A stretch of 64,000 bases of DNA from Candidatus Latescibacterota bacterium (GTDB taxonomy: Bacteria; Latescibacterota; UBA2968; UBA8231). Shown piece after piece: positions 3,987-21,931 of this stretch (its first letter is position 1; the number at the start of each line of letters is the position of its first letter). The notes below the pieces were generated by a model. It was not told where the DNA came from. It searched no databases and worked only from the letters and a program-made list of their open reading frames with translations. The translations under genes were made by a program, and so were the position numbers. Location: NCBI GenBank assembly GCA_965206595.1, contig OZ242214.1, positions 1,056,001 through 1,120,000 on the forward strand, in the 5' to 3' direction.

Positions 3987-6761
3987 ATGGCCCTCGATCC
4001 CTGGTACAAGGTTGTGACCCTTCGCAAGGAAGTGCGCGAGGGCCGCTCGTTCAGCCCGGACGAGTTCGCCATCGCCCTCGAACAGGTGCTCTCCAGAACC
4101 GCGCCCGAAGACTACAGCGACCCGGCCCAGTTCTTTTCGCGCACCTGTTTCACGCGGGCGTTGAAGGAGCACGCCGGCATGGTGCTCCGGCGCCTCGCCG
4201 GCGAGTCCGGGAACACGGCACCGGTCCTGACGCTGATCACCCAGTTCGGCGGCGGCAAGACGCATACCCTTACCGCGCTCTACCACCTGGCACAGGCCGG
4301 CGCAGACGCCTCCAAATACTCCGGGGTGGCCGATCTCCTGAAGGAGGCCGGGATGGCGGAAGCCCCCGCCGCCAGGGTCGGGGTATTCGTGGGCAATGCC
4401 TGGGACCCGTCCGAGGGCCGGGAAACCCCCTGGATCGATCTGGCCCGGCAGCTGGCAGGCGACGACGGCGTCGCCGCCCTGGGATCCGCGGCGCGGACCA
4501 CCCCCCCGGGAACCGAGGCGTTGGCCAAGGTGTGCGCTGCGGCGCAGGCCCCGGTGCTGCTGCTCTTCGACGAGGTGCTCAACTTCGTCAACCGCCACCG
4601 AGTCATGGCCGAGAGCTTCCACGCTTTTCTGCAGAACCTGACCGTCGCCGTCACCGGTACCACCCGGGCCGCCGCGGTCATCAGCCTTCCTCGCAGTCAG
4701 GTCGAAATGACCGACTGGGACCAGCAGTGGCAGGAACGGATAACCAAGGTGGTCCGACGCGTCGCCCGCGATCTGATCGCCAACGACGAGTCCGAGATCA
4801 GCGAGGTGGTCCGCCGCCGGCTCTTCGAGGATCTCGGCAACCCGCGCGTTCGCAGGAAGGTCGGCAAGGCCTACGCGGACTGGTGCTTTGAGCGTACGCC
4901 ACAACTCCCGGCCGAATGGCTCGCCGTCGACACCGCGGCGACGGAGGCCAAGGCAAGGGAATTCCTCAGGGGCCGGTTCGAGGCCAGCTATCCCTTGCAT
5001 CCGGCGACCCTGTCGGTTTTCCAACGCAAGTGGCGCGCCCTTCCCCAGTTTCAGCAGACCCGTGGAGCACTGGCCATGCTGGCGCAATGGATCTCATGGG
5101 CCGCCCGCGAGCAATTCGGAAAGGCGCGAACCGAGCCGCTGATCACCCTGGGATCGGCTCCCCTGGACGTGGCTGAATTCCGGGCGGTGGTCCTTGGACA
5201 GCTGGGCGAGACGCGGCTCGACGTGGCCGTAGAAGCCGATCTTGCAGGACCGATGGCGCATGCGAAGGCTCTGGATGCGGACGCGACCGGGGCTCTTCGC
5301 GACATCCATCGCCGGGTGGGCACGACCATTCTGTTCGAGTCCTCCGGGGGTCAGGTGGACAAGGAGGCTCATCTGCCGGAATTGCGCTTTGCCCTCGGCG
5401 AGCCCGAGGTCGACACAACCACCATCGACAACGCCGCCACAGCCCTGGAGAAATCGGGGTTCTTCATTCGCAGGGTCGGGACAGACGGCTATCGCATCCA
5501 TCATCAGGCGACGTTGAAGAAGGTCGTCAGCGATCGGCGGGCTTCCCTCGATGAAGAGACGGAGATCAAGCCTAGCATCCGCAAGCTCGTTGAAGGGGAG
5601 TTCAAACGCGGGGCAACCATTCCCGTGGTCTTCTTCCCGGAGGACAGCGCCGCGGTCCAGGATTCTCCACGCCTTGCGGTTATCGTCCTCGACCCCGAGG
5701 CGGAGTGGAGGGATGGCGACCAAGTGGTCGAGAGCATTGGCGATTGGACGAAGGAACGGGGCAAGTCTCCACGCCTCTACCCGGGCTCGCTGGTCTGGTG
5801 CGCCAGAAAACCCGGGCGGGAGCTCCGCGAGAAGGCCGAGCTGTGGCTCGCTTGGCAGCGGGTTGAACGGGAAGTGGCCGAAGGAGTCCTCGGCACCGAA
5901 TACGACCGCGCCGATCGCTCGGAGGTCCATGCCCGGGTTCGGGATTCCGAGGAAGCGGCCAGGGAGGAGGTATGGGCCGGATACCGCTTCGTAGCCCTCG
6001 CCGATTCCCAGGAGAGACACGGGCTCAAGGTCGTCGATCTGGGGGCAGGCCATGCCAGCGCTGGCCAGACGCTCTGCGGGCGGATCATCGGCGCGTTGAA
6101 GGCCGAGGCCCTGCTCAACGAGAATGTGGGTGCCGGTTATATCGACCGAAACTGGCCGCCGGCTTTCAAAGAGACCGGGGCTTGGCCCCTCACAAGTTTG
6201 CGCCAGAGCTTTCTCGACAGCTCGTTGACGAGGTTGGTCGACCCGGACGCGACCCTTCGGCGGCAGATCGTCGAGTTCGTGTCGAAGGGGGATTTCGGTC
6301 TGGCTTCAGGTACCAAGAACGGCGGTTTCGAACGGCTGTGGTACGCCGAGCAGGTAGGCCCGGAAGAAGCGGCGTTTGAACCAAGTGTTTTTCTGCTTAC
6401 CAGGGACAAAGCCAGGCAACTCAAAACGTCCCCCGGAGACCCGCCGCCGCCACAGCCGGGGCCGGCCCCAGGCCCGGGTCCGGAACCGCCTCCGGAACAG
6501 TCTCAAACGGAAACTGGTCCCGCGCCGGGTCCGGTCACTCGAAAAACGTCGCTCAGGCTGTCCGGGACCGTACCCTCGGAAGTCTGGAATCTCCTGGGGC
6601 GCAGACTCCTGCCCAAGCTGCGGTCCGGGGACGACCTCAGCGTAGGTATTGATTTTTCGGTCAGCGTCGGCTCGCAGTTTGCCCAGAACATGGAGACGGA
6701 GCTGCGGCAGATTCTCGATGATCTCGAGCTGGGCGACCGGGTCCGGGTCGAACGGTCGTAG
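3987..6761 (+). CDS. DUF499-type AAA+ ATPase
   Basis: N-terminal PWYKVVTLR, Walker A TQFGGGKTH, Walker B LLLFDE, YPLHP and FQQTRGAL blocks; Pro-rich linker before a small C-terminal domain; AGGAG RBS upstream. Confidence 0.9.
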   Translation: MALDPWYKVVTLRKEVREGRSFSPDEFAIALEQVLSRTAPEDYSDPAQFFSRTCFTRALKEHAGMVLRRLAGESGNTAPVLTLITQFGGGKTHTLTALYHLAQAGADASKYSGVADLLKEAGMAEAPAARVGVFVGNAWDPSEGRETPWIDLARQLAGDDGVAALGSAARTTPPGTEALAKVCAAAQAPVLLLFDEVLNFVNRHRVMAESFHAFLQNLTVAVTGTTRAAAVISLPRSQVEMTDWDQQWQERITKVVRRVARDLIANDESEISEVVRRRLFEDLGNPRVRRKVGKAYADWCFERTPQLPAEWLAVDTAATEAKAREFLRGRFEASYPLHPATLSVFQRKWRALPQFQQTRGALAMLAQWISWAAREQFGKARTEPLITLGSAPLDVAEFRAVVLGQLGETRLDVAVEADLAGPMAHAKALDADATGALRDIHRRVGTTILFESSGGQVDKEAHLPELRFALGEPEVDTTTIDNAATALEKSGFFIRRVGTDGYRIHHQATLKKVVSDRRASLDEETEIKPSIRKLVEGEFKRGATIPVVFFPEDSAAVQDSPRLAVIVLDPEAEWRDGDQVVESIGDWTKERGKSPRLYPGSLVWCARKPGRELREKAELWLAWQRVEREVAEGVLGTEYDRADRSEVHARVRDSEEAAREEVWAGYRFVALADSQERHGLKVVDLGAGHASAGQTLCGRIIGALKAEALLNENVGAGYIDRNWPPAFKETGAWPLTSLRQSFLDSSLTRLVDPDATLRRQIVEFVSKGDFGLASGTKNGGFERLWYAEQVGPEEAAFEPSVFLLTRDKARQLKTSPGDPPPPQPGPAPGPGPEPPPEQSQTETGPAPGPVTRKTSLRLSGTVPSEVWNLLGRRLLPKLRSGDDLSVGIDFSVSVGSQFAQNMETELRQILDDLELGDRVRVERS

Positions 6762-6845: not shown

Positions 6846-7748
6846 TTACCCGCGGTTCCCGCCGGCCCGCTTTCGCAGCTCTCCAAGGCGCCGCGAAAGC
6901 TTCTCCATCTCCTCCTCTATCAGGCGGATCTCGTCGCCGACGCTGATCTCGCCGTCGCGCTCGAGGTGCCGGCGCCGTTCCTCCGCCTCCTTTTCCGCCT
7001 CGGCCTCCGACATCGAGTTGATGATCACGCCGATGAACAGGTTGAGCATGATCATCGTTCCCAGCAGCACGAAGGAGACGAAGAAGGCCGCCCCGAGAAG
7101 CGGCCGGCCGCGCGAGGCTTCGCGCAGGTGGGCCTGGGCGAAGTCGCCGTAGTTCGGGTAGGCGTCGCTGCCGTACATCTGGATGTACATCACGTCGGTC
7201 CAGTCCTCGAGGGTCACCACCCGGAAGAGGGTGAGCAGGGCCGTCGACAGGTCCTGGAAGTGGACGGGGTCGTTGCCGCGGAACAGGAAAATTCCCATCA
7301 CCGCGTAGACGTAGAACAGCACCGCGAGCAGCAGGCCGACATAGCCCAGGGAGGGGATCGACTTGAGAAGCGAGCCGACCAGGAGCTGCAGCTTCGGCAC
7401 CGCGGTCACCAGCCGCAGGGCGCGCAGCACCCGCGCCAGCCGCAGCACCGCGGCGTACGGTCCCCCGACCGGCAGGAAGCAGACGACGACGATCAGGAAG
7501 TCGAAGACGTTCCAGGGGTCGGCGAAGTAGCGGTACCAGCGGCTCCCGTGGCGGGCGATCTTGAGCGCCGCCTCGACGGCGAAGATCCCCAGGACCAGTG
7601 CGTTGAGCCGGTGCAACAGGTCTCCGTGGGCCTCGACCAGGTCCCGCGAGGTTTCCAGCCCGACCAGCAGGGCGGCGAGCACGATTACCGCGAGGACTCC
7701 GTGCTGGAACCTGTCGGAGTCTACCAGTCTACCCAGCCGATCCGTCAC
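6846..7748 (-). CDS. Bacterial voltage-gated cation channel (BacNav/NaChBac family)
   Basis: Six TM segments, DPWNVFDF (S3), S4 LRLARVLRALRL, pore filter TLEDWTD, S6 MLNLFIGVIINSM, C-terminal coiled coil. Confidence 0.92.
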   Translation of the reverse strand: MTDRLGRLVDSDRFQHGVLAVIVLAALLVGLETSRDLVEAHGDLLHRLNALVLGIFAVEAALKIARHGSRWYRYFADPWNVFDFLIVVVCFLPVGGPYAAVLRLARVLRALRLVTAVPKLQLLVGSLLKSIPSLGYVGLLLAVLFYVYAVMGIFLFRGNDPVHFQDLSTALLTLFRVVTLEDWTDVMYIQMYGSDAYPNYGDFAQAHLREASRGRPLLGAAFFVSFVLLGTMIMLNLFIGVIINSMSEAEAEKEAEERRRHLERDGEISVGDEIRLIEEEMEKLSRRLGELRKRAGGNRG

Positions 7749-8957: not shown

Positions 8958-11189
8958 TCAGGCCGGGGGCAGGTCCGGGTCGTCAACGCGCGTGACCTCG
9001 TTGATTCCCTCGAGCTTGGAAAGCCCCTTGATCATCGACTGCAACTGGCGCGCGTCGGTTACGTCGAGCTCGAACTTCCCCACGACCCGGTGCAGCCGTG
9101 TGTGGCTTGCGGCGCTGCGGATGTTGGCGCCGGCCTCGCTGATCACCCGGGTTATCTCCGTCAGCAGGTAGGTGCGGTCGGTTCCGGTGATGCCCAGCTG
9201 CACGTGGAACGACTGCTCCTCGTCGACGTCCCACTCCATCACTGTGACGCGGTCCGGGTCCTCCGCTACGTCGGCCATGTTGGGGCAGTCGGTGCGGTGG
9301 ACGGTGATCCCCCGCCCCTTCGTTATCAGGCCGACGATGCGGTCTCCGGGAATCGGGGAGCAGCATTTCCCGAAGTGGATCATCATGTTGTCCAGGCCCT
9401 GGATGCGAATCCCGCTCAGGTCGCGGAACAGCGGGCGGATGCGCCGCTTGGGACGCTTCGGCACGAGGCGGTTGACGACTCCGCTCACCGACAGTTCGCC
9501 GCTGCCGACCGCGGCGTAGAGATGCTCGCTGCCGGCCAGCCCCAGCTCTTCGGCGAGTTCGTCGAGCGACTCGCTGCGCACGGAGTGGCGGTACTTCTTG
9601 AGCTCCCGCTCGAGGATTTCCTGCCCAAGGCGCACCCCGTGGGAGAACCTCTCCTCGCGCAGCCAGCGGCCGATCCAGTGGCGCGCCTTGCCGGTCTTGA
9701 CCATGTCGAGCCAGCTGCTGGTAGGGTGCTGGTGCTGCGAGCTGATGATCTGGACCGAATCGCCGCTGTGGAGCTCGGTTCCGAGCGGCACGATCTGCCC
9801 GTTGACCTTCGCCGTCAGGCAGTGGAGGCCGATGTCGGTGTGCACGGCGAAGGCGAAATCGATGGTCGTCGCCCCCCTGGGCAACTGCAGCAGGTCGCCC
9901 TCCGGGGTGAACACGTAGATCTCGTCCCGGTAGAGCTCGACCTTGAGGTTCTCGAGGAACTCCATCGGGTCGGCGGCTTCCCGCTGCCAGTCGAGCACCT
10001 GACGCAGCCAGCCGATGCGCTGGTCGTTTTCGACCTCCGTCGGCTGTCCGGACTTGTAGCGCCAGTGAGCGGCGATGCCGATCTCGGCGGTCTGGTGCAT
10101 CTCCCGGGTGCGGATCTGGACCTCCACCGGGCGTCCGTCCGGTCCCACCACCGAGGTGTGCAGGGATTGGTACATGTTGGTCTTGGGCGTGGCGATGTAG
10201 TCCTTGAAACGGTCTGAGATCGGCACGTACAGGCTGTGCACGAGGCCTAGCGTCGTGTAGCAGTCGCGCACCGACTCGACGAGAATGCGCACGGCGCTGA
10301 GGTCGTAGATCTCCTGGAAGGTCGTTCCCTGCGTCCTCATCTTGTTATAGATGCTGTAGAAGTGCTTCGGCCGGCCGGTGATCTCGGCGTCGATCCCGGT
10401 CTTGGCGAGGTCGGCCTCGATCGGGGCCTTGAACTCTTCGATGTAGACCTCGCGCTGCTCCCTCTTCATCGCCACCTGCCGCCGGATGTCGACGTACATC
10501 TCCGCGTCGAGGTACTTGAGACTCAGATCCTCGAGCTCCCGGCTGATGCGGGCGAGACCGAGCCGGTAGGCCAGCGGGGCGTACACGTCGACGGTCTCGC
10601 GGGAGATCCTTCTCTGCTGCTCGGCGTCGACGTGGTCGAGGGTGCGCATGTTGTGCAGCCGGTCGGCGAACTTGACGAGGATCACCCGCAGGTCCTCGAC
10701 CATCGACAGCAGCATCTTGCGGTACGATTCCGCCTGGCGGGCTTCACGGCTCTGGTACTGGAAGCGCTCGATCTTGGTCACCCCGTCGGTGAGGGCGGCG
10801 ATCTTGGGGCTGAACTCCCCCGCGACCTCCTCCAGGGTGACCGAGGTGTCTTCGAGCACGTCGTGCAGCAACCCGGAGGCCACCGTCGTCGAATCGAGGC
10901 GGAGCTGCGCGAGGATGCGGGCGACCTCGACGCAGTGCTGCATGAAAGGGCGCCCCGACATGCGGGTCTGGCCGGCGTGCTTGTCGCTGGCGTAGCGGTA
11001 GGCGCGCGCGATCAGATCGAAATCCGCCTGCTCGTTGATGGAGGCGACCTCGATCAGCAGCATCTGGAGTTCGAGCTCGCTCGTCTCTTCGAGGACCTCG
11101 TCGAGACTGCGCAGCCGGTGCGTCGCCGCGGCCGGGGCCCCGTTCCCGGCGGACTCGGGGGTTTTTGCGATTTCGGTCAGTTCGCTCAT
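8958..11189 (-). CDS. rel: Bifunctional (p)ppGpp synthetase/hydrolase RelA/SpoT
   Basis: HD hydrolase LLHDVLED, ADRLHNMRTL, synthetase GRPKHFYSI / YQSLHT / EVQIRT, then TGS, ZFD (CCSPIPGD) and ACT domains. Confidence 0.96.
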   Translation of the reverse strand: MSELTEIAKTPESAGNGAPAAATHRLRSLDEVLEETSELELQMLLIEVASINEQADFDLIARAYRYASDKHAGQTRMSGRPFMQHCVEVARILAQLRLDSTTVASGLLHDVLEDTSVTLEEVAGEFSPKIAALTDGVTKIERFQYQSREARQAESYRKMLLSMVEDLRVILVKFADRLHNMRTLDHVDAEQQRRISRETVDVYAPLAYRLGLARISRELEDLSLKYLDAEMYVDIRRQVAMKREQREVYIEEFKAPIEADLAKTGIDAEITGRPKHFYSIYNKMRTQGTTFQEIYDLSAVRILVESVRDCYTTLGLVHSLYVPISDRFKDYIATPKTNMYQSLHTSVVGPDGRPVEVQIRTREMHQTAEIGIAAHWRYKSGQPTEVENDQRIGWLRQVLDWQREAADPMEFLENLKVELYRDEIYVFTPEGDLLQLPRGATTIDFAFAVHTDIGLHCLTAKVNGQIVPLGTELHSGDSVQIISSQHQHPTSSWLDMVKTGKARHWIGRWLREERFSHGVRLGQEILERELKKYRHSVRSESLDELAEELGLAGSEHLYAAVGSGELSVSGVVNRLVPKRPKRRIRPLFRDLSGIRIQGLDNMMIHFGKCCSPIPGDRIVGLITKGRGITVHRTDCPNMADVAEDPDRVTVMEWDVDEEQSFHVQLGITGTDRTYLLTEITRVISEAGANIRSAASHTRLHRVVGKFELDVTDARQLQSMIKGLSKLEGINEVTRVDDPDLPPA

Positions 11190-12330: not shown

Positions 12331-12360
12331 TTGCCAGAAAGGATTAATCTCCTTTATTTG
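12331..12360 (+). promoter_or_regulatory. Candidate sigma70-like promoter with an AAAGGA-N6-TCCTTT inverted repeat in the spacer
   Basis: TTGCCA at 12331-12336, weak AT-rich -10 near 12354-12360, inverted repeat at 12338-12355; lies about 120 bp upstream of the 1594-aa gene. Confidence 0.4.
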
Positions 12361-12478
12361 TGCGGTTGAGCCGGCGCAGAAATCCGAATCCCGAGCGGCA
12401 TCTGACCGAAAGATCGGCAACGCTCCACAACCTCCGCGTTCGTTCGCAAGGCCTCCGACAAACCATCTTCCCAAGCGC

Positions 12479-15400
12479 ATGAGAATACGACCCGTCAGCG
12501 CGCTCACGGCTTTACTAGGCAGCGCTATCCTGGGGTCGAGCCCGCCCCTGTACGCGGAAGTCGATTTCAGGGGGCTCGAGCGGCTGGCCCCGAAGCAGCG
12601 TCTCGAAGAGACCGTCCAGTATCTCTCCGGTCTCGGCTCGCGCGTCGCCGGGTACCCCGGCGCCGAAGCCGCCGCCCTCTACATCCAGCAGCAGTTTCGC
12701 GACATCGGGCTGGACGGGATCTCCTTTCAGACGTACGACATCTCCATCCCGGTAGAGAAGGGTGGATTCATCGAGCTCGCCGGAGGGGATGCCGGGCGTT
12801 TTGCGATTCACGGACTGTGGCCCAACCTCGTGCGCACCTCCACGCTTCCCGACGGCGGCATCGACGCGAAGCTCGTGTACGGCGGCACCGGGGAATTCCC
12901 CGAGCTCTCCGGCACCGGGATCGAAGGTTCGGTCGTCCTTCTCGAGTTCAACTCCGGCGACAACTGGCTCAACTGTGCCTACCTCGGCGCCGCGGCGATT
13001 CTTTTCGCCGAGCCGGACTCGACTGTCTATCTCGAGGGGGAGAAGAAATTTCTCACCATGCCGCTCGACATGCCGCGCTTCTGGATCGCCAAGGAGGCCG
13101 CCGAGAACCTGCGCGGGCGGCTGGAGGAGGGCGGGTCCCTGCCGGTGCACCTCGAATACCGCATGGACTGGGAACGCCGGCCGGCCTGGAACATCCTCGG
13201 CGCCATTCCGGGGTACGACCCGCTCCTCAAGGAGGACACCATCGTCCTCGAGTCGTACTACGACGCCATGTCGGTGGTGCCGGCGCTGGCTCCGGGGGCC
13301 GAGCAGGCGGCCGGCATCGCCGCCCTGCTCGAGCTCGCAAGGTACTTCCGCGACAATCCGCCCTCGCGGACCGTGGTCTTTCTGGCAACGTCGGCGCACC
13401 ATCTCGCCCTTCGCGGCGTAGACGATTTCATCCAGCGCTACCTGCGCAAGGAAGACCCGTTCATCGATCGCATGGTCGTTCGCAGGGTCGTCGAGGCGGC
13501 GCTGGCGAGAGGCTTGATAGAGTCGGAGGGAGTCACCTACCGGCTGGGCAGCCTCGAGTTCCACGGCAAGGAGGGACTGATCCGTGAGATCGCCGACAAC
13601 GACACGATCCTGGTCCGTTCCGTCCTGAAGGCCGCCCTCGAAGAGGAGGACGCGGTGCGGCGGGAAGGGGACCGTTTCCTCGTCGCCGATGAATCCTTCT
13701 CCAGCCTCGAGAAGCTCGAAGCGGAGCTCGCCGACGACGAGGACCTCAGGCTCGCCTTTTACAAGGAATGGGTCAATCCCAAGGTCGATTCCCTCGGCGT
13801 GAAGCTGTTCGTCAGCCTGGACCTGTCGACGCAGACCGACGAGCTCGGCGTCTGGAACAGCAACACGAGCTTCTACTACAAGCGCTACTTCGCCCCCTTC
13901 GGCAAGAACTTCATGTCGTACGCCCGTGTCCTGAGCCGCGAGCTGGGGTACGACGACCGCGACATCCTCGTCAACGGCATCAGCCCGGAGGGCGGCAAGA
14001 GCTGGGAGACCTTCGTTCCCGGCGAGATTTCCGTGAACAGCGAGCTCGTCCTCGACACCGGCACGCCGGCCCTGGCCTTCGTCACCGTGAACGACGCCCG
14101 CTTTCTCGTCGACACCCCGCTCGACCGCGCCTCCGAGGTCAACCACGAGAACCTGGCGCGCCAGATCAGGGCGCTGGCCGGGATGTTTCACATGGCCTTC
14201 GAGGACCCGGAGCTGTTTCCCGATTTCAAGATGCGCCTGAAGGACACCATGCGCACCCTGAAGGGCAGGACGATGGTCTTCCCGAGGCGCAGCATCGTTC
14301 CCGACCTGGCGCGGCCCGGGGCGGTAGCCTCTGTCCGCAACGGCAAGAAGAAGTCCTACAAGGGGGTGCGGGGAGAACACTTCGAGGTGGTCGACTCCGA
14401 CGGCGCCTTCTACGACAACCGCATCCGCGTCAACTCCGTGCAGATCGAGGGGTACTTCATGGACCCGGCCACCGGCAGCGTCACCTACGCGCCGGACCGC
14501 GGCGAGCAGGGGGACGGGTCCTACCCGATGAAGATCTCCATGGACTGGCGCGACAAGCAGTGGATGGTGGTGCTGTTTCCGTGCGAGTCGTTCAACTTCT
14601 ACGACATCGTCGACCCGCGCTACCTCACCAAGCTTTCGCAGGTGACGATCTTCGACGAAACCAACACGACGCCGGTCGAGTACGGGTACACCATCGGAGA
14701 GGGCCCCTCCGCCAGGGGCGAGCCGGTGGGGGTGCTGTTCGCCCGCCCCGGGACCATCATCAAGCTCGGCTTCGGCGCCAGCATCCTCGGGTTCCGTTCC
14801 CTGCTGCTCAACTCCGAGTCGGCCGACGACATGGACCGCGCCCTCGGCGCCGGGTTCGCGATCCAGCCAGGGACCTCGTTCGCGCGCACCTCGTACCGCT
14901 CCGCCAGGGACATGTGGACTCTCGACGAGGCCCGCATGCGGGAGCTCAAGAGCTTCGCCATCGAGAACCAGCGCCTCAACGCCCTGCACGATCGCGCCGA
15001 GGAGGAGCTCGAAAAGGCGGAGCTGGCACTGGCATCGAAGGAGTGGGGAGAATTCGTCAAGTACACGCGCGCCGCCATCGGCCTGGAGTCGCGCGCCTAT
15101 CCCGACGTCAAGTCGACGCAGAACGACGTCATCCGGGGCATCATTTTCTTCATGGCCCTGGTCCTGCCCTGCGCCTACTTCGCCGAGCGCCTGCTGATCA
15201 CCGCGGCGACGATCAAGAATCAGATCCTGGGATTCGGGAGCATCTTCCTCGTCATCTGGATCATCCTGTCGGTGGTGCACCCGGCGTTCCAGCTCTCCAA
15301 TCCCTTCGTGATCCTGCTCGCCTTCGTGATCCTGACGCTGGCGGTGCTCGTCATCTGGCTCATCTCGGGCCGCTTCAACGAGCAGATGAAAAAGCTGCGC

Positions 15401-17263
15401 ACCGAGGTGGCGGTGATTCACGACACCGACGTATCCCGTTCCAGCGCCTCCCTGACCGCCTTCCTGCTCGGCATCTCCAACATGAAGCGGCGCAAGCTGC
15501 GAACTGTGCTCACCTTCACGACCCTGCTGCTGCTGACCTTCACGGTGCTCTCCTTCACGTCGATCCAGACGTCGTTGCGCTTCAATCAGATCGAGCGCGA
15601 CAACGAGGGCCTCTACGAGGGGATCATGATCCGCAGCAAGGCCTGGACCCCTCTCGAGGAGTCGGTGTACGAGTATGCCCTGAGCCACTTCGGCGACCGC
15701 GCCGTGGTTGCGCCGCGCAGTTGGTACGACAACAAGACCAAGGCCCACATCAAGATGAAGCGCGGCGTCGGCAGGCATAACGCCCTCGGGGTGCTCGGCC
15801 TGACGCCGCATGAGAGCGAGATCACCGGCCTCGACCGCGCCCTGATAGCGGGGCGCTGGTTCCGGCCCGGGGAGGAAAAGGTCTGCATCATTCCCAACGA
15901 CATGATCGGGACGACGCAGGACAAGCTCGACATCGACCTCGCCGCGGTAAATGTCGGCGAGGGGGTCGAGATCCGGGTGTTCGGCGATCAGTTCAGGATC
16001 GTCGGAGTGATCAGCTCGAAGAAGATGAAACAGCTGAAGGATCTCGACGACGAGATGATGACGCCGGCCGACTTCGCCGTCACCGGCGGCCAGGCGGTGC
16101 AGGAGATGGCGGAGGAGGAAAAGCGGGAGAAGGAGGGCCTCGAGGACGCCAAGGTCGTTATCAAGCCGTTCGTCCACCTCGAGCCGGCCAACACCCTGAT
16201 CGTTCCCTACAACACTTTGCGCAACATCGGCAGCGGTAACCCGCTGCAGTCGGTGGCGGTGCGCTTCGAGGACGAGGACGTGTCCGTGCGGCGCGAGATC
16301 GAGGAGTTCCTGTCGCGGCTCGCGGTCACCCTTTTCGCCGGAGTTCAGGAAGAGGGTGACGAGTACGTCCGCGTCTCCATCTACAGCTCGCTCGGCATGA
16401 CCTCCCTTTCGGGTATGGCCAACCTGTTCATTCCGATCCTGATCGCCGCCCTGATCGTGCTGAACACGATGATGGGGAGCGTGTACGAGCGCTTCCGCGA
16501 GATCGGCGTCTACTCGTCGGTCGGGCTTGCCCCGGCCCACATATCCTGGCTGTTCATGGCCGAGTCCTGCGTGTACGCCGTCCTCGGAGTGGTCGCAGGA
16601 TACCTCGCCGGACAGATCACGGCGACGACGCTGATCAAGTTCGATCTGGTCGCCGGCTTCACCCTCAACTACTCGTCGCTGTCCGCGGTGATGTCCTGCA
16701 TCCTGGTGATGGCCGTGGTCATGCTGTCGACGGCGTATCCGGCACGCAAGGCCTCGCAGATGGCGGTACCCGACGTCACCCGCAAGTGGCGACTGCCGCC
16801 GCCGTCGGGGGACGAGTGGCATTTCGAGTTTCCGTTCACGGTCAGTGGGCACGACGTCATCGGGCTCAGCGTATTCCTTATCGGCTACTTCGACTCGTAC
16901 AGCGAAGAGTCGATCGGCACCTTCTACACCGACGGGGCCAGCCTGCGGCGTTTCGACTCTGAGCACGGCGAAGGTTACTCGATCGACATGAACATCTGGC
17001 TGGCGCCCTTCGACCTCGGGGTGAGTCAGCACGTCGTCATCCGGGCCAACCCGGAATCCGAGCACAACATCTACTCGATATCGCTGGACATCCGCCGCCT
17101 CAGCGGCGAGGATGCCTCCTGGCGGCGGGTCAACCAGCGCTTCATGAACGTCATCCGCAAGCAGTTCCTGATCTGGCGGACGGTCGACGCCGAGGCCAAG
17201 GACTCGTACCGCGGTCAGGGGGTCGAGATCCTCGCGGGTGAGCGCACCGAGGTATCGGCTTAA
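12479..17263 (+). CDS. Exported M28-fold (PA-containing) peptidase-like domain fused to a MacB/FtsX-like permease
   Basis: Signal peptide; SRVAGYPG, PA-like insert, NILGAIPG, GIAALLELAR (M28 scaffold). TM cluster near aa 890-1030 with SNMKRRKLRTVLT (MacB N-terminal motif), a MacB-type periplasmic domain, and FtsX motif SVYERFREIGVYSSVGLAP...AYPARKAS. Confidence 0.85.
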   Translation: MRIRPVSALTALLGSAILGSSPPLYAEVDFRGLERLAPKQRLEETVQYLSGLGSRVAGYPGAEAAALYIQQQFRDIGLDGISFQTYDISIPVEKGGFIELAGGDAGRFAIHGLWPNLVRTSTLPDGGIDAKLVYGGTGEFPELSGTGIEGSVVLLEFNSGDNWLNCAYLGAAAILFAEPDSTVYLEGEKKFLTMPLDMPRFWIAKEAAENLRGRLEEGGSLPVHLEYRMDWERRPAWNILGAIPGYDPLLKEDTIVLESYYDAMSVVPALAPGAEQAAGIAALLELARYFRDNPPSRTVVFLATSAHHLALRGVDDFIQRYLRKEDPFIDRMVVRRVVEAALARGLIESEGVTYRLGSLEFHGKEGLIREIADNDTILVRSVLKAALEEEDAVRREGDRFLVADESFSSLEKLEAELADDEDLRLAFYKEWVNPKVDSLGVKLFVSLDLSTQTDELGVWNSNTSFYYKRYFAPFGKNFMSYARVLSRELGYDDRDILVNGISPEGGKSWETFVPGEISVNSELVLDTGTPALAFVTVNDARFLVDTPLDRASEVNHENLARQIRALAGMFHMAFEDPELFPDFKMRLKDTMRTLKGRTMVFPRRSIVPDLARPGAVASVRNGKKKSYKGVRGEHFEVVDSDGAFYDNRIRVNSVQIEGYFMDPATGSVTYAPDRGEQGDGSYPMKISMDWRDKQWMVVLFPCESFNFYDIVDPRYLTKLSQVTIFDETNTTPVEYGYTIGEGPSARGEPVGVLFARPGTIIKLGFGASILGFRSLLLNSESADDMDRALGAGFAIQPGTSFARTSYRSARDMWTLDEARMRELKSFAIENQRLNALHDRAEEELEKAELALASKEWGEFVKYTRAAIGLESRAYPDVKSTQNDVIRGIIFFMALVLPCAYFAERLLITAATIKNQILGFGSIFLVIWIILSVVHPAFQLSNPFVILLAFVILTLAVLVIWLISGRFNEQMKKLRTEVAVIHDTDVSRSSASLTAFLLGISNMKRRKLRTVLTFTTLLLLTFTVLSFTSIQTSLRFNQIERDNEGLYEGIMIRSKAWTPLEESVYEYALSHFGDRAVVAPRSWYDNKTKAHIKMKRGVGRHNALGVLGLTPHESEITGLDRALIAGRWFRPGEEKVCIIPNDMIGTTQDKLDIDLAAVNVGEGVEIRVFGDQFRIVGVISSKKMKQLKDLDDEMMTPADFAVTGGQAVQEMAEEEKREKEGLEDAKVVIKPFVHLEPANTLIVPYNTLRNIGSGNPLQSVAVRFEDEDVSVRREIEEFLSRLAVTLFAGVQEEGDEYVRVSIYSSLGMTSLSGMANLFIPILIAALIVLNTMMGSVYERFREIGVYSSVGLAPAHISWLFMAESCVYAVLGVVAGYLAGQITATTLIKFDLVAGFTLNYSSLSAVMSCILVMAVVMLSTAYPARKASQMAVPDVTRKWRLPPPSGDEWHFEFPFTVSGHDVIGLSVFLIGYFDSYSEESIGTFYTDGASLRRFDSEHGEGYSIDMNIWLAPFDLGVSQHVVIRANPESEHNIYSISLDIRRLSGEDASWRRVNQRFMNVIRKQFLIWRTVDAEAKDSYRGQGVEILAGERTEVSA

Positions 17264-17301: not shown

Positions 17302-19719
17302 GTGCTGTTTCGCAAGAACAAGAACCCCAACGCGGAAATAGAAGAGTACCGGGATCTGCTCGATACCCCCGAGACGTTCGAGGAGGGGTTCACGACCAAG
17401 ACGATCCTCGGCGTCCTGTTCGTCGCCTTCGTCATGATTCCCGGGAACATCTACCTGGGGCTGATGGTCGGCGGCAATCTCGGCGCCGCCGCGGAGTGGG
17501 TGACGATCATCCTGTTCGCCGAGATCACCAAGCGCTCCTTCACGACGCTGAGGAAGCAGGAAGTCTACGTCCTCTACTACGTCGCGGCCGGGCTGATAGC
17601 CGCCGAGACCGGCTCCTTCCAGGGCCTGCTATGGAACCAGTACCTGCGCCAGTCCCCGGCGGCCAAGCAGTTCGGCATCGCCAACCTGATTCCCGACTGG
17701 TTCGCGCCCCCTCTCGAATCGGCCGCCCTGCTGCAGCGGACCTTCCTGCACTCCGACTGGCTGCTGCCGATCGCCCTGCTGGTCGCCGGCGTGCTGATCG
17801 CCCGCGTCTCCTGGTTCACCGCGGCGTACGCCCTCTTCCGCGTCAACTCCGATTACGAGCGCCTGCCCTTTCCCTTCGCCCCGGTAGCGGCCCAGGGGGC
17901 AACGGCGCTGGCCGAGACAACCCAGGGGGTCGAGTCCTGGCGCTGGCGGGTGTTTTCCGCAGGAGCGATGATCGGGCTCGTCTTCGGCACCCTCTACGTC
18001 GCCATCCCGGCGATTACCGGCGCCCTGCTCACCGAGCCGATCCAGCTGATACCGATCCCCTTCGTAGACTTCACCCAGGTCACCGGTAACTTCATCCCGG
18101 CGACGCCGCTGGGATTCACCGCCCATCTCGGACCGATCTTCGCCGGTCTGGTGGTCCCCTTCTGGGGGGTGATCGGGACCTTTCTCGGGGTCGTCGCGCA
18201 CTCTATCGCCAACCCCATCCTCTACAAGTACGGTCTTCTCGAGATCTGGCAGCCGGGGATGGGGGCGGTCGAGACCTTCTTCGTCAACAGCGTCGACTTC
18301 TGGATGAGCTTCGGCATCGGCACGACCCTGGCGATCGCCATCATCGGCCTCTACCAGGTCACCCGGGCCCTGATAGGCGCCCGCGATGCCGGAGGCAGGG
18401 TCGGGGAAGTAAGGCGCAGCTGGGAGGTCCCGAAGGGCCGGGGAGATTTTTCGCTGTGGACGGCGCTGGGGCTGTACGCGGTGGCCACGAGCGGCCTGAT
18501 CCTGATCGCCGCTTTCCTGCTGCCGGGGTTCAAGGGCTTCATCTGGTTCTTCCTGTTCTTCGGCTTCGTCTTCACCCCGTTCCAGTCGTTCGTCAACGCC
18601 CGCCTCTACGGCATGGTGGGGCAGAGCGTCGATATCCCGTTCGTACGCGAAGCGACCATCATCCTGTCCGGGTACCAGGGGGTCGATATCTGGTTCATAC
18701 CGTTCCCCCTGGGGAACTACGGCAGCCAGTGCCAGAAATTTCGCGAGATCGAGCTGACCGGAACCCGCTTCACCAGCATCATCAAGGCCGAGGTCTTCAT
18801 GGTGCCGATCGTGCTGTTCACCACCTTCCTGTACTCGTCCTACGTCTGGAAGCTGGCACCGATTCCCTCGGCGTCGTACCCGTACGCCCAGGTGATGTGG
18901 CGGCTTCAGGCCTTGCAGACCTGTCTCTGGTTCACCGGGACCCTGCGCAGCGAAATGGATTACCTGCCCGACCGCTCCGAGGCGACCTGGATGCCGGCGA
19001 ACCTGGTCGAGGGGGAGTGGTGGTACTGGCGGGTGCGGGCCGTCGACCCCGCCTGGCTCGAGTCGAAGGGCAAGCAGGGGCAGGCCGGACCGTGGTCCGA
19101 GAAGCGGGCTTTCTTCACCCATTTCGACGAGGGGGAGCCGGAGCTGCCAGAGCATCCTCCCGGCGCCATGAAGAGTGTTCCGGATGTGGGCGCAGCGGCG
19201 GTTGCCCTGACCGGACCGGCGGTGACCGCGGTCTCTCCGGCAGTCGACATCGGCATTATCCGCACCCCGAGACCGGAGCTGGTGGTGCGTTCAGACGAAC
19301 CGCTTCCCGAGGGCTGGGAGTACTACTACGCCCTCGACACCGACCCCAACTTCTCCAGTCCGTGGATCCAGCGCACTACCGACGAGCCGTGGCTGTTCCG
19401 CGCCATCAAGCCGAACATCATCGCCGCCGGCGCCATCGTCGGCCTGGGGAGCTACATCCTGCTGTCGATTTTCGGCCTGCCGATCCTGCTGGTCTTCGGG
19501 TACGTCCGGGCCCTGACCACGATCCCGCACTGGATGGTAACCGAGGTCATCGGCGCCATGCTGGCCCGCTACTATTTCTGGGGCAAGTACGGCAAGAAGG
19601 AGTGGCGGCTGTACGCGCCGGTGCTTGCGGTCGGGTTCGCCTGCGGCATGGCGCTCATGGGGATGGCCGCGATCTCCATCGCCCTGATCCAGAAGTCGGT
19701 CTCCGTACTCATCTTCTGA
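17302..19719 (+). CDS. OPT-superfamily-like multi-pass membrane transporter with a large soluble insert
   Basis: FEEGFTTKTILG, AEWVTIILFAE, ERLPFPFAPV (OPT-like LPFP motif) and many TM helices; about 150-aa hydrophilic insert at roughly 18945-19390. Confidence 0.75.
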   Translation: MLFRKNKNPNAEIEEYRDLLDTPETFEEGFTTKTILGVLFVAFVMIPGNIYLGLMVGGNLGAAAEWVTIILFAEITKRSFTTLRKQEVYVLYYVAAGLIAAETGSFQGLLWNQYLRQSPAAKQFGIANLIPDWFAPPLESAALLQRTFLHSDWLLPIALLVAGVLIARVSWFTAAYALFRVNSDYERLPFPFAPVAAQGATALAETTQGVESWRWRVFSAGAMIGLVFGTLYVAIPAITGALLTEPIQLIPIPFVDFTQVTGNFIPATPLGFTAHLGPIFAGLVVPFWGVIGTFLGVVAHSIANPILYKYGLLEIWQPGMGAVETFFVNSVDFWMSFGIGTTLAIAIIGLYQVTRALIGARDAGGRVGEVRRSWEVPKGRGDFSLWTALGLYAVATSGLILIAAFLLPGFKGFIWFFLFFGFVFTPFQSFVNARLYGMVGQSVDIPFVREATIILSGYQGVDIWFIPFPLGNYGSQCQKFREIELTGTRFTSIIKAEVFMVPIVLFTTFLYSSYVWKLAPIPSASYPYAQVMWRLQALQTCLWFTGTLRSEMDYLPDRSEATWMPANLVEGEWWYWRVRAVDPAWLESKGKQGQAGPWSEKRAFFTHFDEGEPELPEHPPGAMKSVPDVGAAAVALTGPAVTAVSPAVDIGIIRTPRPELVVRSDEPLPEGWEYYYALDTDPNFSSPWIQRTTDEPWLFRAIKPNIIAAGAIVGLGSYILLSIFGLPILLVFGYVRALTTIPHWMVTEVIGAMLARYYFWGKYGKKEWRLYAPVLAVGFACGMALMGMAAISIALIQKSVSVLIF

Positions 19720-19741
19720 TTCGCCACAGGTGCGTTGCCAA

Positions 19742-20746
19742 ATGGCTGACCGTGGAGTCGAGTGGGCGGACTTCGGATGGCAGGGGATTTATCTGCGCGT
19801 GCCGGATGACTGGAACCTGGGCAAGGTGGACGGCGACGCGAAGAGCGGCTACGCCCGTCTCGACGACGCCGAGATCGTCCGCGCCGAAGTCGAATGGCGG
19901 GAGACGCCGGACCGGGGACGCAGACTGCCGGTCCCCGACCTCGTAGAGCGCTACCTCGACAAGCTGGCGAAAAAAGCGGAGAAGGCAGACACTCCCTTCT
20001 CGGTGACGAGGCAGGCAAAGTTCCTGCGCGACAAGCGCTGGCTCGAGGGGGCCGAGTACGAGGCCTTTACCTGGCGCGCCGACTACCTCGCCTACAATCT
20101 GGCGCGCGCCTGCCCCGACTGCGGGCGCATCCTGCTGCTGCGCGTTCTCGCCCGGCTCACGGAGAACCTCGAAGAGCTCGCCGACCGGGTCTTCCGCTCC
20201 GTCGCCTGCCACAGCGCCGACAGGATGCGCTACTGGAGCGTCTACGGCATGACCTTCCGAGTGCCCGAGGAGTTCGCCCTCTCCAAGCACGAGCTCAAAT
20301 CCGGCAATATCCAGATGACCTTCGAGAGGAAGAACCAAAGCTGCCGGGTACAGCGCCTCAGCATGGCCCAGATGCTGCTCAAGGGGACGACCCTCGAGGA
20401 GTGGTATCCCAACTTCTTCCGCAAGGAGCTGCGCGATTTCAACTGCGACGTCGCCGAGACCGGGGTGGGGGATCACCAGGGACTGCGGGTGACCGGGCGG
20501 CCGCGCAGCCGTTTGCGCCAGCTGCTGCGGCCCCTGCCGCTGCTCAACCCGCGTCCCCGCCAGCACCTCGACGCCCTCGTCTGGCACTGCGAGGAGGGGA
20601 ACCGAATCTGCGTCGTCGAACACCTTTACAAGAGGGAAAAGGAGCGCGACGACCTCACCGACCGCCTGAGCGCCGTCTATGTTTGCCACCCGCAAGAAAC
20701 CGAAGCTGACGCGCGAGGCGATGCTCAACTCGCGTCCGGCGCGTAA
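19742..20746 (+). CDS. Hypothetical cytoplasmic protein with two PsbP/Mog1-like repeats
   Basis: Internal repeat FGWQGIYLRVPDDWNL versus WSVYGMTFRVPEEFAL; CPDC motif; strong GC3 coding bias; operonic position. Confidence 0.7.
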   Translation: MADRGVEWADFGWQGIYLRVPDDWNLGKVDGDAKSGYARLDDAEIVRAEVEWRETPDRGRRLPVPDLVERYLDKLAKKAEKADTPFSVTRQAKFLRDKRWLEGAEYEAFTWRADYLAYNLARACPDCGRILLLRVLARLTENLEELADRVFRSVACHSADRMRYWSVYGMTFRVPEEFALSKHELKSGNIQMTFERKNQSCRVQRLSMAQMLLKGTTLEEWYPNFFRKELRDFNCDVAETGVGDHQGLRVTGRPRSRLRQLLRPLPLLNPRPRQHLDALVWHCEEGNRICVVEHLYKREKERDDLTDRLSAVYVCHPQETEADARGDAQLASGA

Positions 20747-21116
20747 CGACCTGCTTCAGTGGGATAAGACGGAAAGCGGCGAAGCCCGCATAACCGTCAC
20801 CCGCATCGACTCCTGGAAGGTGCGGCTGCTTTCCAAGCTGTTCTACGTCCCCAGGAAGCGCACCATCACTCTCGACGAAGTCGGCACCGAGATCTGGCAG
20901 ATGTGCAACGGCCGCACCTCGGTCGGGCAGATGATCGAGGAGCTGCGCGTCAAGTACAAGCTCGACCGCAAGGAGGCGGAGGTGTCGCTGCTGCAGTACC
21001 TGAAGACGCTGGGCGAGAAGCGATTCGTCGGCTTCGTCCTCGAGGGGACGGAGCAGTCGGAGCGGCAGCAGAAGTATTCCAGGGGGGACGCGAGCGGCAA
21101 GAGGTGGGAGAAATAG
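20679..21116 (+). CDS. PqqD-family / RiPP recognition element (RRE)-like protein
   Basis: ITLDEVGTEIWQMCNGRTSVGQMIEEL...LLQYLKTLGEKRFV matches the winged-helix PqqD pattern LD..G..IW...DG..TV..I...L. Confidence 0.85.
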   Translation: MFATRKKPKLTREAMLNSRPARNDLLQWDKTESGEARITVTRIDSWKVRLLSKLFYVPRKRTITLDEVGTEIWQMCNGRTSVGQMIEELRVKYKLDRKEAEVSLLQYLKTLGEKRFVGFVLEGTEQSERQQKYSRGDASGKRWEK

Positions 21117-21338: not shown

Positions 21339-21926
21339 ATGACCGGAACCCCCGACTGGCAGCACAGGTTCGCCCGGTTTCTGTCGCACCTGTTCAGTCC
21401 GGCGGCCATGGCTGTCTGGGTGTTCGCCGGACTGGGGATCCTGCGCCCAGGCGAGACCGACTGGAAGGCCCTGGGGATTGCCCTCGCCCTGTTCACCCTG
21501 CTTCCCTGCGCCGTCATGGTGCTGCTGCGCCGGCGAGGCCTCGAGGACGTGTACGCTCCCGAGCCGGCCCTCAGGCAGCGCATCCTCCTGATGGGAACAG
21601 TCTGCTATCTGACAGGTTTCCTGGTTCTTTCGGCCGTGGATGCGGCACCGACCATGACCTGGAGCGCCGCCTCCATCACCTTGGCCGCGGCCGCCGTCCG
21701 GGTGATCGACCGCTTCTGGAAGATCAGCATACATTCGGTCGGGGTCGCCGCGGGGGTGTTCGTCCTCGTGAAGGTGGGCGGCCCCGGGCAGTGGCCCCTG
21801 CTTGCCGCCCCTCCCCTCGTCGCCTGGGCGCGGCTGCGGCTCGGGGCGCACACGGTCCCGCAGCTGCTTGCCGGGATTCTCCTCGGGGCCCTGGTGCCCG
21901 CCCTTCTCCTGCCCCATTTCCGCTGA
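21339..21926 (+). CDS. PAP2-like membrane protein (putative lipid phosphate phosphatase)
   Basis: About 6 TMs; WKISIHS and WARLRLGAHT resemble PAP2 C2/C3 motifs; no C1 motif evident. Confidence 0.65.
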   Translation: MTGTPDWQHRFARFLSHLFSPAAMAVWVFAGLGILRPGETDWKALGIALALFTLLPCAVMVLLRRRGLEDVYAPEPALRQRILLMGTVCYLTGFLVLSAVDAAPTMTWSAASITLAAAAVRVIDRFWKISIHSVGVAAGVFVLVKVGGPGQWPLLAAPPLVAWARLRLGAHTVPQLLAGILLGALVPALLLPHFR

Positions 21927-21931
21927 TCGCC

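Follow-up and report, generated by a model that had tools for sequence, protein, structure and literature searches.

M28-fold proteins without peptidase chemistry are known in eukaryotes. They include the transferrin receptor (TfR), a receptor without peptidase activity, and nicastrin and nicalin, which are inactive as peptidases and serve as subunits of eukaryotic endoplasmic reticulum (ER) or gamma-secretase complexes. In ATP-binding cassette (ABC) systems of type VII, a different kind of membrane machine, ATP-driven movement is thought to be passed to periplasmic parts. Here we describe a bacterial gene whose product is predicted to join an M28-like ectodomain to a permease of this second kind. 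It lies in a stretch of 64,000 nucleotides (the window) of a Candidatus Latescibacterota genome, as an open reading frame (ORF) of 1594 aa at window positions 12479-17263 on the forward strand, and is referred to below as the fusion gene. Its assignment as a PA/M28-like and MacB/FtsX-type fusion rests on the ORF, its third-position G+C content (GC3), Pfam matches and homologues.

The canonical M28 site provides the frame for the comparison. For the Aeromonas aminopeptidase (AAP; 1amp), Table 1 of PMC7522609 lists His97, Asp117, Glu152, Asp179 and His256 as sites 1 to 5, and the same source assigns Zn1 to sites 2, 3 and 5 and Zn2 to sites 1, 2 and 4. The table also includes one-zinc M28-fold enzymes, the glutaminyl cyclases, whose metal is bound by sites 2, 3 and 5. 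It gives GPAA1 of the glycosylphosphatidylinositol (GPI) transamidase as modelled with the altered ligands Pro, Asp, Asp, Glu and Tyr. The general base of 1amp is Glu151, beside the site 3 Glu152. On the permease side, YbbAP-TesA is presented as a type VII ABC-hydrolase complex in PMC12646458, and in both YbbAP-TesA and FtsEX a permease is coupled to a hydrolase or a hydrolase activator. In the literature searched, we found no published description of a PA/M28-MacB/FtsX fusion family, and the listed matches on type VII ABC systems and mechanotransmission made no mention of M28.

Residues at the former two-zinc site

Alignments, a structural model and conservation place the central part of the M28-like domain, including each of the five former metal-ligand positions, in 13241-14130 (+). 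This stretch lies entirely within the fusion gene, whose GC3 of 0.88 fits the real genes of the window (65% G+C). A first-pass annotation of the DNA had pointed to five altered motifs here, and each was confirmed in the translation on the forward strand: ESYYD (residues 258-262, 13250-13264), GAEQAAG (273-279, 13295-13315), SAHH (305-308, 13391-13402), SLDLS (446-450, 13814-13828) and VDTPLD (544-549, 14108-14125).

Alignments to solved or canonical M28 proteins by phmmer, profile hmmsearch and hhalign agree on two of the sites. Tyr260 stands opposite the His of the HxD motif, in place of the site 1 His, within Tyr260-Tyr261-Asp262 (13256-13264, +), of which Asp262 is the kept Asp of HxD. The pair His307-His308 (13397-13402, +) stands opposite Glu-Glu and occupies the positions of Glu151 and Glu152 of 1amp, with His307 for the general base and His308 for the site 3 Glu. 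The site 5 region is the loop DARFLVDTPLD (14093-14125, +), in which Asp545 is opposite the His of YHTPxD (vDtPlD against YHTPND); the aligned stretches are weak on their own, and the motif fits. The same loop retains Thr-Pro-x-Asp549 from YHTPxD and carries Asp539 and Arg541, which are family-specific invariants. The replacements of His by Tyr, Glu-Glu by His-His and His by Asp that had been read from the letters are therefore borne out by these alignments.

The equivalences at sites 2 and 4 hold with some qualification. Glu275 (13301-13303, +), the first residue of a helix in the model, lies at or next to the bridging Asp of site 2. HMMER, in its alignment to 6hc6, places it opposite the ligand Asp of GAxDxxSG, whereas hhalign sets it against the neighbouring Asp; because the site 2 loop is one residue shorter and hhalign is shifted, the assignment of GAEQAAG to site 2 carries a one-residue ambiguity. 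The replacement of Asp by Glu275 is a conservative change, and the residue might still bind a metal. Asp448 (13820-13822, +), taken to be the kept Asp of site 4, is aligned with the Asp of the nicalin LCLD motif and sits at a strand end in the model, but when four canonical M28 proteins from this genome were compared by hhalign the motif stayed unaligned, with a three-residue offset near an artificial cut of an insert. Those four proteins carry the expected motifs themselves. In sum, of the five metal-ligand positions only site 4 retains its residue, an Asp; the other four are changed, as is the general base. Judged from these alignments, neither the co-catalytic pair of zinc sites nor the Glu that served as general base survives in the M28-like domain.

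The replacements extend across a large family. A HMMER scan of 1.84 billion cluster representatives returned 2750 matches at E<=1e-3, of which 766 (clusters at 50% identity) reached E<=1e-30; most were about 1450-1750 residues long. The best 150 of the 2750 matches were aligned with the query to give 151 rows, and the canonical His/Asp/Glu-Glu/Asp/His set occurs in none of them, which excludes a two-zinc aminopeptidase on sequence grounds and upholds the first-pass claim that the canonical zinc and catalytic residues have been replaced. An ordinary two-zinc M28 aminopeptidase whose motifs have simply been misaligned is, on this evidence, extremely improbable. Its support is a complete fold (see below) and a Pfam Peptidase_M28 (PF04389) match at residues 238-319 (E 8.9e-8; 32.5 bits against a gathering score of 21.3). 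That match, however, is confined to positions 1-78 of the 193 in the profile. The replacements are given alike by four independent alignment methods, the canonical set is absent from all 151 rows, and the canonical M28 proteins of the same genome display the motifs expected of them.

Conservation was ranked over 864 ectodomain positions. Asp262 (148 of 151 rows) ranks first and His307 (147) second, followed among the pocket residues by Asp549 (143, rank 12), Arg541 (142, rank 15) and Asp539 (140, rank 20); Pro547 is present in 140 rows. Position 260 is Tyr in 111 rows, Phe in 12 and His in 10, position 275 is Glu in 112 and Asp in 19, position 448 is Asp in 115 with 17 gaps, and position 545 is Asp in 122. 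Glu/Asp275, Asp448 and Asp545 are thus each retained in 76-87% of rows, and all three occur together with His307 in 85. Position 308 ranks only 236, with Phe in 79 rows, His in 18, Tyr in 16, Gly in 13 and Cys in 11, and in a midpoint-rooted quick FastTree of 137 of the 151 rows His308 appears in several separate places amid a Phe majority. As a candidate link between the positions, co-variation of Glu275 and Asp545 with His308 was examined and rejected: they are kept in 15 and 16 of the 18 His308 rows and in 72 and 60 of the 79 Phe308 rows.

Closer relatives of the fusion protein are more uniform. The 8000 scored candidates gave 406 homologues at E<=1e-3, and among the 121 close homologues (50-96% identity) Tyr260 is present in 116, Glu275 in 120, His308 in 117, and His307, Asp448 and Asp545 in all 121. 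A common 12-position signature was found in 65 of 78 sequences (44 and 21, differing only by Gln or Met at position 276), and His308 in 70 of the 78 sequences examined, all but five from related loci of metagenome-assembled genomes (MAGs). The fusion gene has five full copies and one broken copy in the genome itself, a single contig of 7.05 Mb. One other full copy shares the complete residue set of the window gene; the remaining three have Phe or Tyr at 308, two of them Gly or Thr at 275 and two Asn or Ser at 545. His307, Asp448, Asp539, Arg541 and Asp549 are retained in every full copy.

The second His is therefore specific to the clade, and the His-His pair, which had been suggested as a rewired metal site, is no general metal site of the family: only His307 is near invariant. 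Of the residues whose conservation had been in question, Glu275, His307, Asp448 and Asp545 proved conserved, while position 308 varies and 276 is Gln or Met among the 65 sequences with the signature. The conservation shows that the replacements and the pocket residues Asp262, His307, Asp448, Asp539, Arg541 and Asp549 are under strong purifying selection, and on the same grounds the former active site is remodelled rather than merely decayed. The description of the domain as catalytically dead is accordingly half right: the two-zinc set and the Glu base are gone, but 'dead' is too strong for a pocket that belongs to the best-conserved regions of the ectodomain. What is new in this account is its family-wide, site-by-site scope, comprising the invariant His at the base position, the kept site 4 Asp, the variable site 3, and the clade and paralogue differences at sites 2 and 5. 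Together with knowledge of what the pocket binds, it would add an example of a two-metal hydrolase site converted to another use, with an invariant His in place of the catalytic Glu.

Fold and closest relatives of the ectodomain

An AlphaFold model of the ectodomain, built from a 51-row alignment, had a mean predicted local distance difference test (pLDDT) value of 93.2 and a predicted template modelling (pTM) score of 0.92. Superposition on 1amp with VIA-align gave Z 29.3 over 265 of 291 residues with a root-mean-square deviation (rmsd) of 2.4-2.5 Å. Foldseek ranked PA-domain M28 aminopeptidases highest among the matches listed, namely 2ek8 (E 1.5e-22), BSAP and PaAP, and after them TfR (1.7e-18) and GCPII; in VIA the Z scores against the model were 26.6 for TfR, 25.8 for GCPII and about 26 for glutaminyl cyclases. 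These matches indicate that the M28 catalytic-domain fold is complete, though the Pfam match is partial. The predicted structure thus shows an M28 aminopeptidase fold with a PA domain.

By sequence as well as by fold, the active bacterial PA-M28 aminopeptidases are closer kin than nicalin or nicastrin. The family profile matched 2ek8 at E 7.2e-24 and BSAP (6hc6) at 3.8e-22, compared with 7.5e-11 for nicalin, over about 430 profile positions (9.9e-7 in a second profile search), and 7.6e-4 for nicastrin. Neither nicalin nor nicastrin was among the matches listed by Foldseek or VIA, which does not exclude them, and the fusion protein gave no Nicastrin-family Pfam match at E<=1. The ectodomain has the fold in common with the Aneurinibacillus AM-1 aminopeptidase 2ek8, B. 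subtilis BSAP/YwaD (6hc6), P. aeruginosa PaAP and the Aeromonas/Vibrio proteolyticus enzyme 1amp, and with the PA-M28 enzymes also the insertion of PA in M28; it keeps from these aminopeptidases the Asp of HxD, a PGA motif, the site 4 Asp and T-P-x-D. It departs from them at site 1 (Tyr), site 2 (Glu), site 3 (His or Phe), site 5 (Asp) and the base position (His), and, unlike the secreted PA-M28 aminopeptidases, it contains an insert of about 115 residues and is fused to a membrane permease.

The likeness to nicalin and nicastrin that had been proposed is real in part. All three are membrane proteins with the M28 fold and an incomplete catalytic set, the profile finds both eukaryotic proteins, and a YDAxxVxPxLxxGA stretch is strikingly similar between nicalin and the fusion family. 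The loss pattern, however, differs. Nicalin shows AHYD, GADS, GGG and LCLD in the profile alignment, with sites 1, 2 and 4 kept and Gly-Gly for Glu-Glu, whereas sites 1, 3 and 5 and the base are altered in the fusion protein. Nicalin and nicastrin are also single-pass eukaryotic proteins without an ABC module and without an invariant His at the base position, whereas the fusion protein is bacterial and combines seven transmembrane (TM) segments with an FtsX module. The glutaminyl cyclases differ in another direction, in that none of the five canonical residues is lost from them, nor is the Glu base; the family described here varies at site 3 and has His as its base residue. Together with GPAA1 they illustrate that the M28 scaffold is able to work with one metal, although in the fusion head a metal is hypothetical.

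TfR1 and GCPII share with the fusion protein a PA and M28 ectodomain on a membrane anchor. Their single anchor is N-terminal and they dimerise through a helical domain at the C-terminus, whereas the head here sits on a seven-TM MacB-type base; GCPII, unlike this head, is an active two-zinc enzyme. The resemblance raises the question of whether the M28/PA head is a purely structural scaffold, used only for dimerisation or docking as in TfR. The TfR and GCPII matches to the model fit such a role, and Asp262, Thr-Pro-x-Asp549, Gly273 and Gly313 are second-shell or structural residues of the canonical M28 motifs. His307, Asp539 and Arg541, on the other hand, are not canonical structural residues, yet they stand among the 20 most conserved ectodomain positions; a polar cluster of His, Asp and Arg at a former active site would be a poor stabiliser of the fold by itself, and the invariant residues W114, P115, N116, R200 and K190 of the PA domain suggest a conserved inter-domain cleft. 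We regard a scaffold role alone as improbable.

The overall layout was derived from a hydropathy scan and two AlphaFold models: a signal peptide (residues 1-26), the ectodomain (27-883), TM helices (884-962), a cytoplasmic linker, the FtsX module (1005-1430) and a C-terminal domain. The putative signal peptide (12479-12556, +), ending in LYA/EV, has no lipobox cysteine and was read from the sequence; homologue alignments begin at about residue 27. The PA-like apical domain inserted in the M28 fold occupies approximately residues 112-236 (12812-13186, +), limits that are approximate and follow the alignment with the PA domains of 2ek8 and BSAP; F176, P199 and W231 complete, with the five named above, the list of its family-invariant residues. 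Between former sites 3 and 4 the model shows helices and small sheets in the insert (residues 325-440, 13451-13798, +), which is variable in the family; the family matches break into two stretches around it, and relatives of 1480-1530 aa lack most of it. The insert possibly consists of two similar halves and is clade-specific. A beta-rich domain with three long helices (residues 586-889, 14234-15145, +; pLDDT mostly >85) would form the joint between head and membrane, followed by three extra TM helices (residues 884-962, 15128-15364, +) found in the hydropathy scan and present as helices in the second model.

Permease half, candidate motor and possible role of the head

The MacB/FtsX-type module (residues 1005-1430, 15491-16768, +) was delimited by Pfam, profile and fold matches and comprises TM1, a periplasmic core domain and TM2-4, which brings the total of the fusion protein to the seven TM segments mentioned. 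Pfam FtsX (PF02687) matches residues 1317-1428 (E 1.1e-14; 55 bits against a cut-off of 25.5), and MacB_PCD matches residues 1020-1200 below its 27-bit cut-off (E 2.2e-4, 22 bits). Against the PDB, the family profile found MacB 5lil (5.7e-20) and YtrF (2.3e-13). By structure, Foldseek matched the permease half to 5gko (3.2e-11) and VIA to YtrEF (Z 16.1) and MacB 5nik (Z 15.2), with a large rmsd that reflects domain placement; the periplasmic core alone superposed on the MacB periplasmic region 3ftj with Z 13.1 and 3.1 Å over 177 residues. According to the models, the permease half has the MacB/LolCDE/YtrEF fold, with an FtsX domain and a periplasmic core between TM1 and TM2. Behind it lies a conserved cytoplasmic alpha/beta domain of about 150 residues (approximately 1441-1585, 16799-17233, +) recognised in the model. 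It gave middling helix-grip/START/Aha1/KA1-like matches (Z 7-8), and an Atlas search with it returned no usable match. This C-terminal domain is strongly conserved, including the stretches WLAPFDLGVSQ and RKQFLIWRT.

The permease fold is common to the type VII ABC systems MacAB-TolC, LolCDE, FtsEX-EnvC, YtrEF, HrtBA, BceAB and YbbAP-TesA. In the fusion protein, unlike these, the FtsX module is preceded by an ectodomain of some 860 residues with three additional TM helices and followed by a cytoplasmic domain. Its likely partner permease is a minimal FtsX of 214-234 aa. In this genome the ATPase gene lies apart, and the large subunit exists as five paralogues.

No ABC ATPase adjoins any of the five copies in the genome. 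A candidate came from three distant loci (L100, L103 and L104), where the gene row reads large fusion, a membrane protein resembling the one downstream of the window gene, in some cases a conserved hypothetical protein (g3, below), a PqqD-family protein, an FtsX of 214-216 aa that lacks a large periplasmic domain, and lastly an ABC ATPase; in L100 and L103 a TPR protein gene opens the row. In a further locus (L096) an ATPase gene and a DUF6785 gene stand ahead of the fusion gene. The genome of the window carries a single, unlinked orthologous pair at C1:4577086-4578607 on the reverse strand (locus L105:7086-8607), between glycosyltransferase and tryptophan-synthesis genes; its short FtsX has 234 aa and its ABC ATPase 262 aa. 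The short FtsX is 50-53% identical to its operon-borne counterparts and the ATPase 72-74% identical to those of L103 and L104, compared with 52-54% for the next ABC ATPase. Across the phylum, the head occurs in 155 of 168 genomes, usually in several copies, and the short FtsX in 148, always in a single copy. The 13 genomes that lack the head belong to one family and lack the short FtsX too, the seven genomes with a head and without the short FtsX are all <90% complete, and no genome has the short FtsX alone; as the genomes are kin, this co-occurrence amounts to about one independent loss. The distribution fits one shared motor, the short FtsX with its ATPase, that would serve several large subunits.

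Taking these observations together, we consider the head most likely to be a ligand-handling part of an ATP-driven membrane machine rather than an ordinary peptidase. To the more specific reading, in which it is the non-peptidase ligand-binding head of a type VII (MacB/FtsX-type) ABC machine, we give about an even chance. In such a machine, the fusion protein would pair with the short four-TM FtsX protein and the ABC ATPase. The pocket would bind a ligand, most likely a peptide or a peptide-like amine, without cleaving it; a ligand of this kind is suggested by the M28 ancestry of the fold and by the operon's PqqD-family member. Cytoplasmic ATP hydrolysis would act on the head through mechanotransmission, in the manner of MacB, LolCDE and FtsEX, so that movement of the FtsX base opens, closes or repositions it, and this movement would let the head capture or release the ligand or hand it to a neighbouring membrane protein. 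The natural candidate for the latter is the product of the next gene, g2 (17302-19719, +), a polytopic membrane protein of 805 aa with about 10 TM-like segments and no Pfam family. In the clade of the window gene, Glu275, His308 and Asp545 offer two carboxylates and one His, as in the Zn1 site of 1amp (Asp117, Glu152, His256) with the His moved, which makes a one-metal site conceivable there; a single metal, structural or ligand-bridging, would be compatible with the ligand-binding reading.

Several points weigh against that reading. The nature of the ligand as a peptide or peptide-like amine is a guess, and the pairing with the short FtsX and the ATPase is based on gene order in three distant loci and on co-occurrence among related genomes. 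An OPT match was seen in one of 16 g2 relatives and fell below the Pfam cut-off, and phmmer found no significant similarity between g2 and the DUF6785, UPF0182 or 568-aa partner proteins that follow other copies in the genome. A rewired catalytic site would likewise show conserved carboxylates and an unvarying His in place of the base, and the solved E151H variant of AAP (2anp) is called 'functional' in its PDB title.

The last two points bear on a rewired enzyme, a hydrolase or transferase with a new active site on the old scaffold, which we regard as the main rival, possible but less likely than ligand binding. In this clade, such an enzyme would hold one metal on Glu275, His308 and Asp545 with His307 as the general base; in the rest of the family the metal would be bound by Glu/Asp275, His307, and Asp448 or Asp545; and the substrate would be delivered or extracted by the ABC module, as for TesA on YbbAP. 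The proposal is consistent with six positions that hold metal-binding or acid/base-capable residues and are invariant in the clade, with the near invariance of His307 (147 of 151 rows), with the joint retention of Glu/Asp275, His307, Asp448 and Asp545 in 85 rows, and with the E151H variant. The one-zinc glutaminyl cyclases, with metal at sites 2, 3 and 5 in Table 1 of PMC7522609 and a Z of about 26 to the model, and the YbbAP-TesA complex (PMC12646458) provide precedents. It is opposed by site 3, which varies freely (Phe in 79 of 151 rows), by site 1, which is Tyr or Phe, and by the paralogues of the same genome, where position 275 can be Gly or Thr and position 545 Asn or Ser, so that there is no universal metal-ligand triad.

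A more elaborate combination, which we consider unlikely, would place a new active or gated site round His307 and Asp262 with Asp448, Asp539, Arg541 and Asp545 (in the clade, a swapped one-metal triad of Glu275, His308 and Asp545), driven by the ABC motor through the MacB-type base, processing peptides or handing them over to the neighbouring transporter, with one motor for several paralogous heads. Compared with TfR, nicastrin and nicalin, the bacterial M28 scaffold seen here has been reshaped differently, with tight conservation, and is joined to a MacB-type mechanotransmission permease. With its 766 clusters and its presence throughout most of the phylum, the family is large, and would represent an abundant envelope machine of uncultured bacteria; knowledge of the ligand or metal of the pocket would tell what that machine moves.

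Neighbouring genes and other copies

Downstream of g2, which has no solved relative by sequence search, lie g3 (19730-20746, +), a conserved hypothetical protein of 338 aa with one CxxC whose nearest Atlas clusters are unnamed and without a Pfam family, and a gene for a PqqD-family protein (20679-21116, +), a peptide-chaperone family, assigned by Pfam PF05402 (3.8e-13) with all NCBIfam models below cut-off. A weak PAP2-like membrane phosphatase follows (21339-21926, +; Pfam PAP2 1.2e-4, 22.2 bits, below the 27.2 cut-off). Upstream of the fusion gene are genes of the NusG_II and Hpre_diP_synt_I families. As called, the g3 and PqqD genes overlap by 68 nt, and the two occur jointly in some 32-34 of the 79 loci described next; neither a radical-SAM enzyme nor any other that modifies peptides was seen adjoining them.

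These locus counts refer to the best 79 of 591 relatives, which were recovered from 595 pattern matches in a scan of one genome per species. The 79 loci come nearly all from MAGs labelled Latescibacterota, with some Gemmatimonadota, one Nitrospirota and a few with no label but 'bacterium'; the nearest, L062, has 96% identity. In 59 of them the gene immediately downstream of the fusion gene encodes a g2 homologue (homologues of g2 also stand beside two other copies in the genome of the window), and a gene for a DUF6785/DUF6784-type membrane protein, a family on which we found no literature, directly upstream in 49; UPF0182 is found downstream in three. PqqD is present in 34 loci, g3 in 32 and PAP2 in 28. 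The survey shows that the fusion gene is nearly always accompanied by a large polytopic membrane-protein gene, before or after it.

The same holds within the genome. The other full copies, which share 37-68% identity, are at C1:3761662-3766440, 6510551-6515323, 1782129-1786445 and 1304933-1309255, and the broken copy, with an in-frame TAG, is at C1:5082542-5084308 beside Mutator-family and DUF772 transposase genes. After all five full copies comes a partner protein of 568-944 aa with 7-10 hydrophobic segments, each different: g2, a g2 paralogue, DUF6785/6784, UPF0182 and a 568-aa protein without a family. BLASTP linked one pair among the partner membrane proteins (E 2e-4).

Contigs from metatranscriptomes in four runs of one study (X1-X4, labelled sponge metagenome), 95-99% alike to the window, cover pieces of 12355-15745, 16380-17259 and 17407-19900, that is, the fusion gene and g2. 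As the contigs come from a close relative and RNA libraries may hold DNA, they are a hint of transcription and not proof; the bins upstream of 12293 showed no such cover, which proves nothing.

In individual relatives, other genes follow the cassette: bacterial-microcompartment shell genes at L096:17184-18907, a PilZ-domain gene at L103:9909-10331 and a GAF-GGDEF diguanylate cyclase gene at L104:18153-19253. The last two are hints of possible c-di-GMP control in some lineages. Elsewhere in the window, we observed an ORF of 924 aa at 3987-6761 (+; GC3 0.78, no Pfam family at E<=1e-3), an AAA_21/AbiEii-like ATPase at 2080-3303 (+), a RecD2-type helicase at 21791-24067 (+), a RelA/SpoT (p)ppGpp synthetase-hydrolase at 8958-11189 (-) and a voltage-gated-type ion channel at 6846-7748 (-; Ion_trans 5.7e-48).

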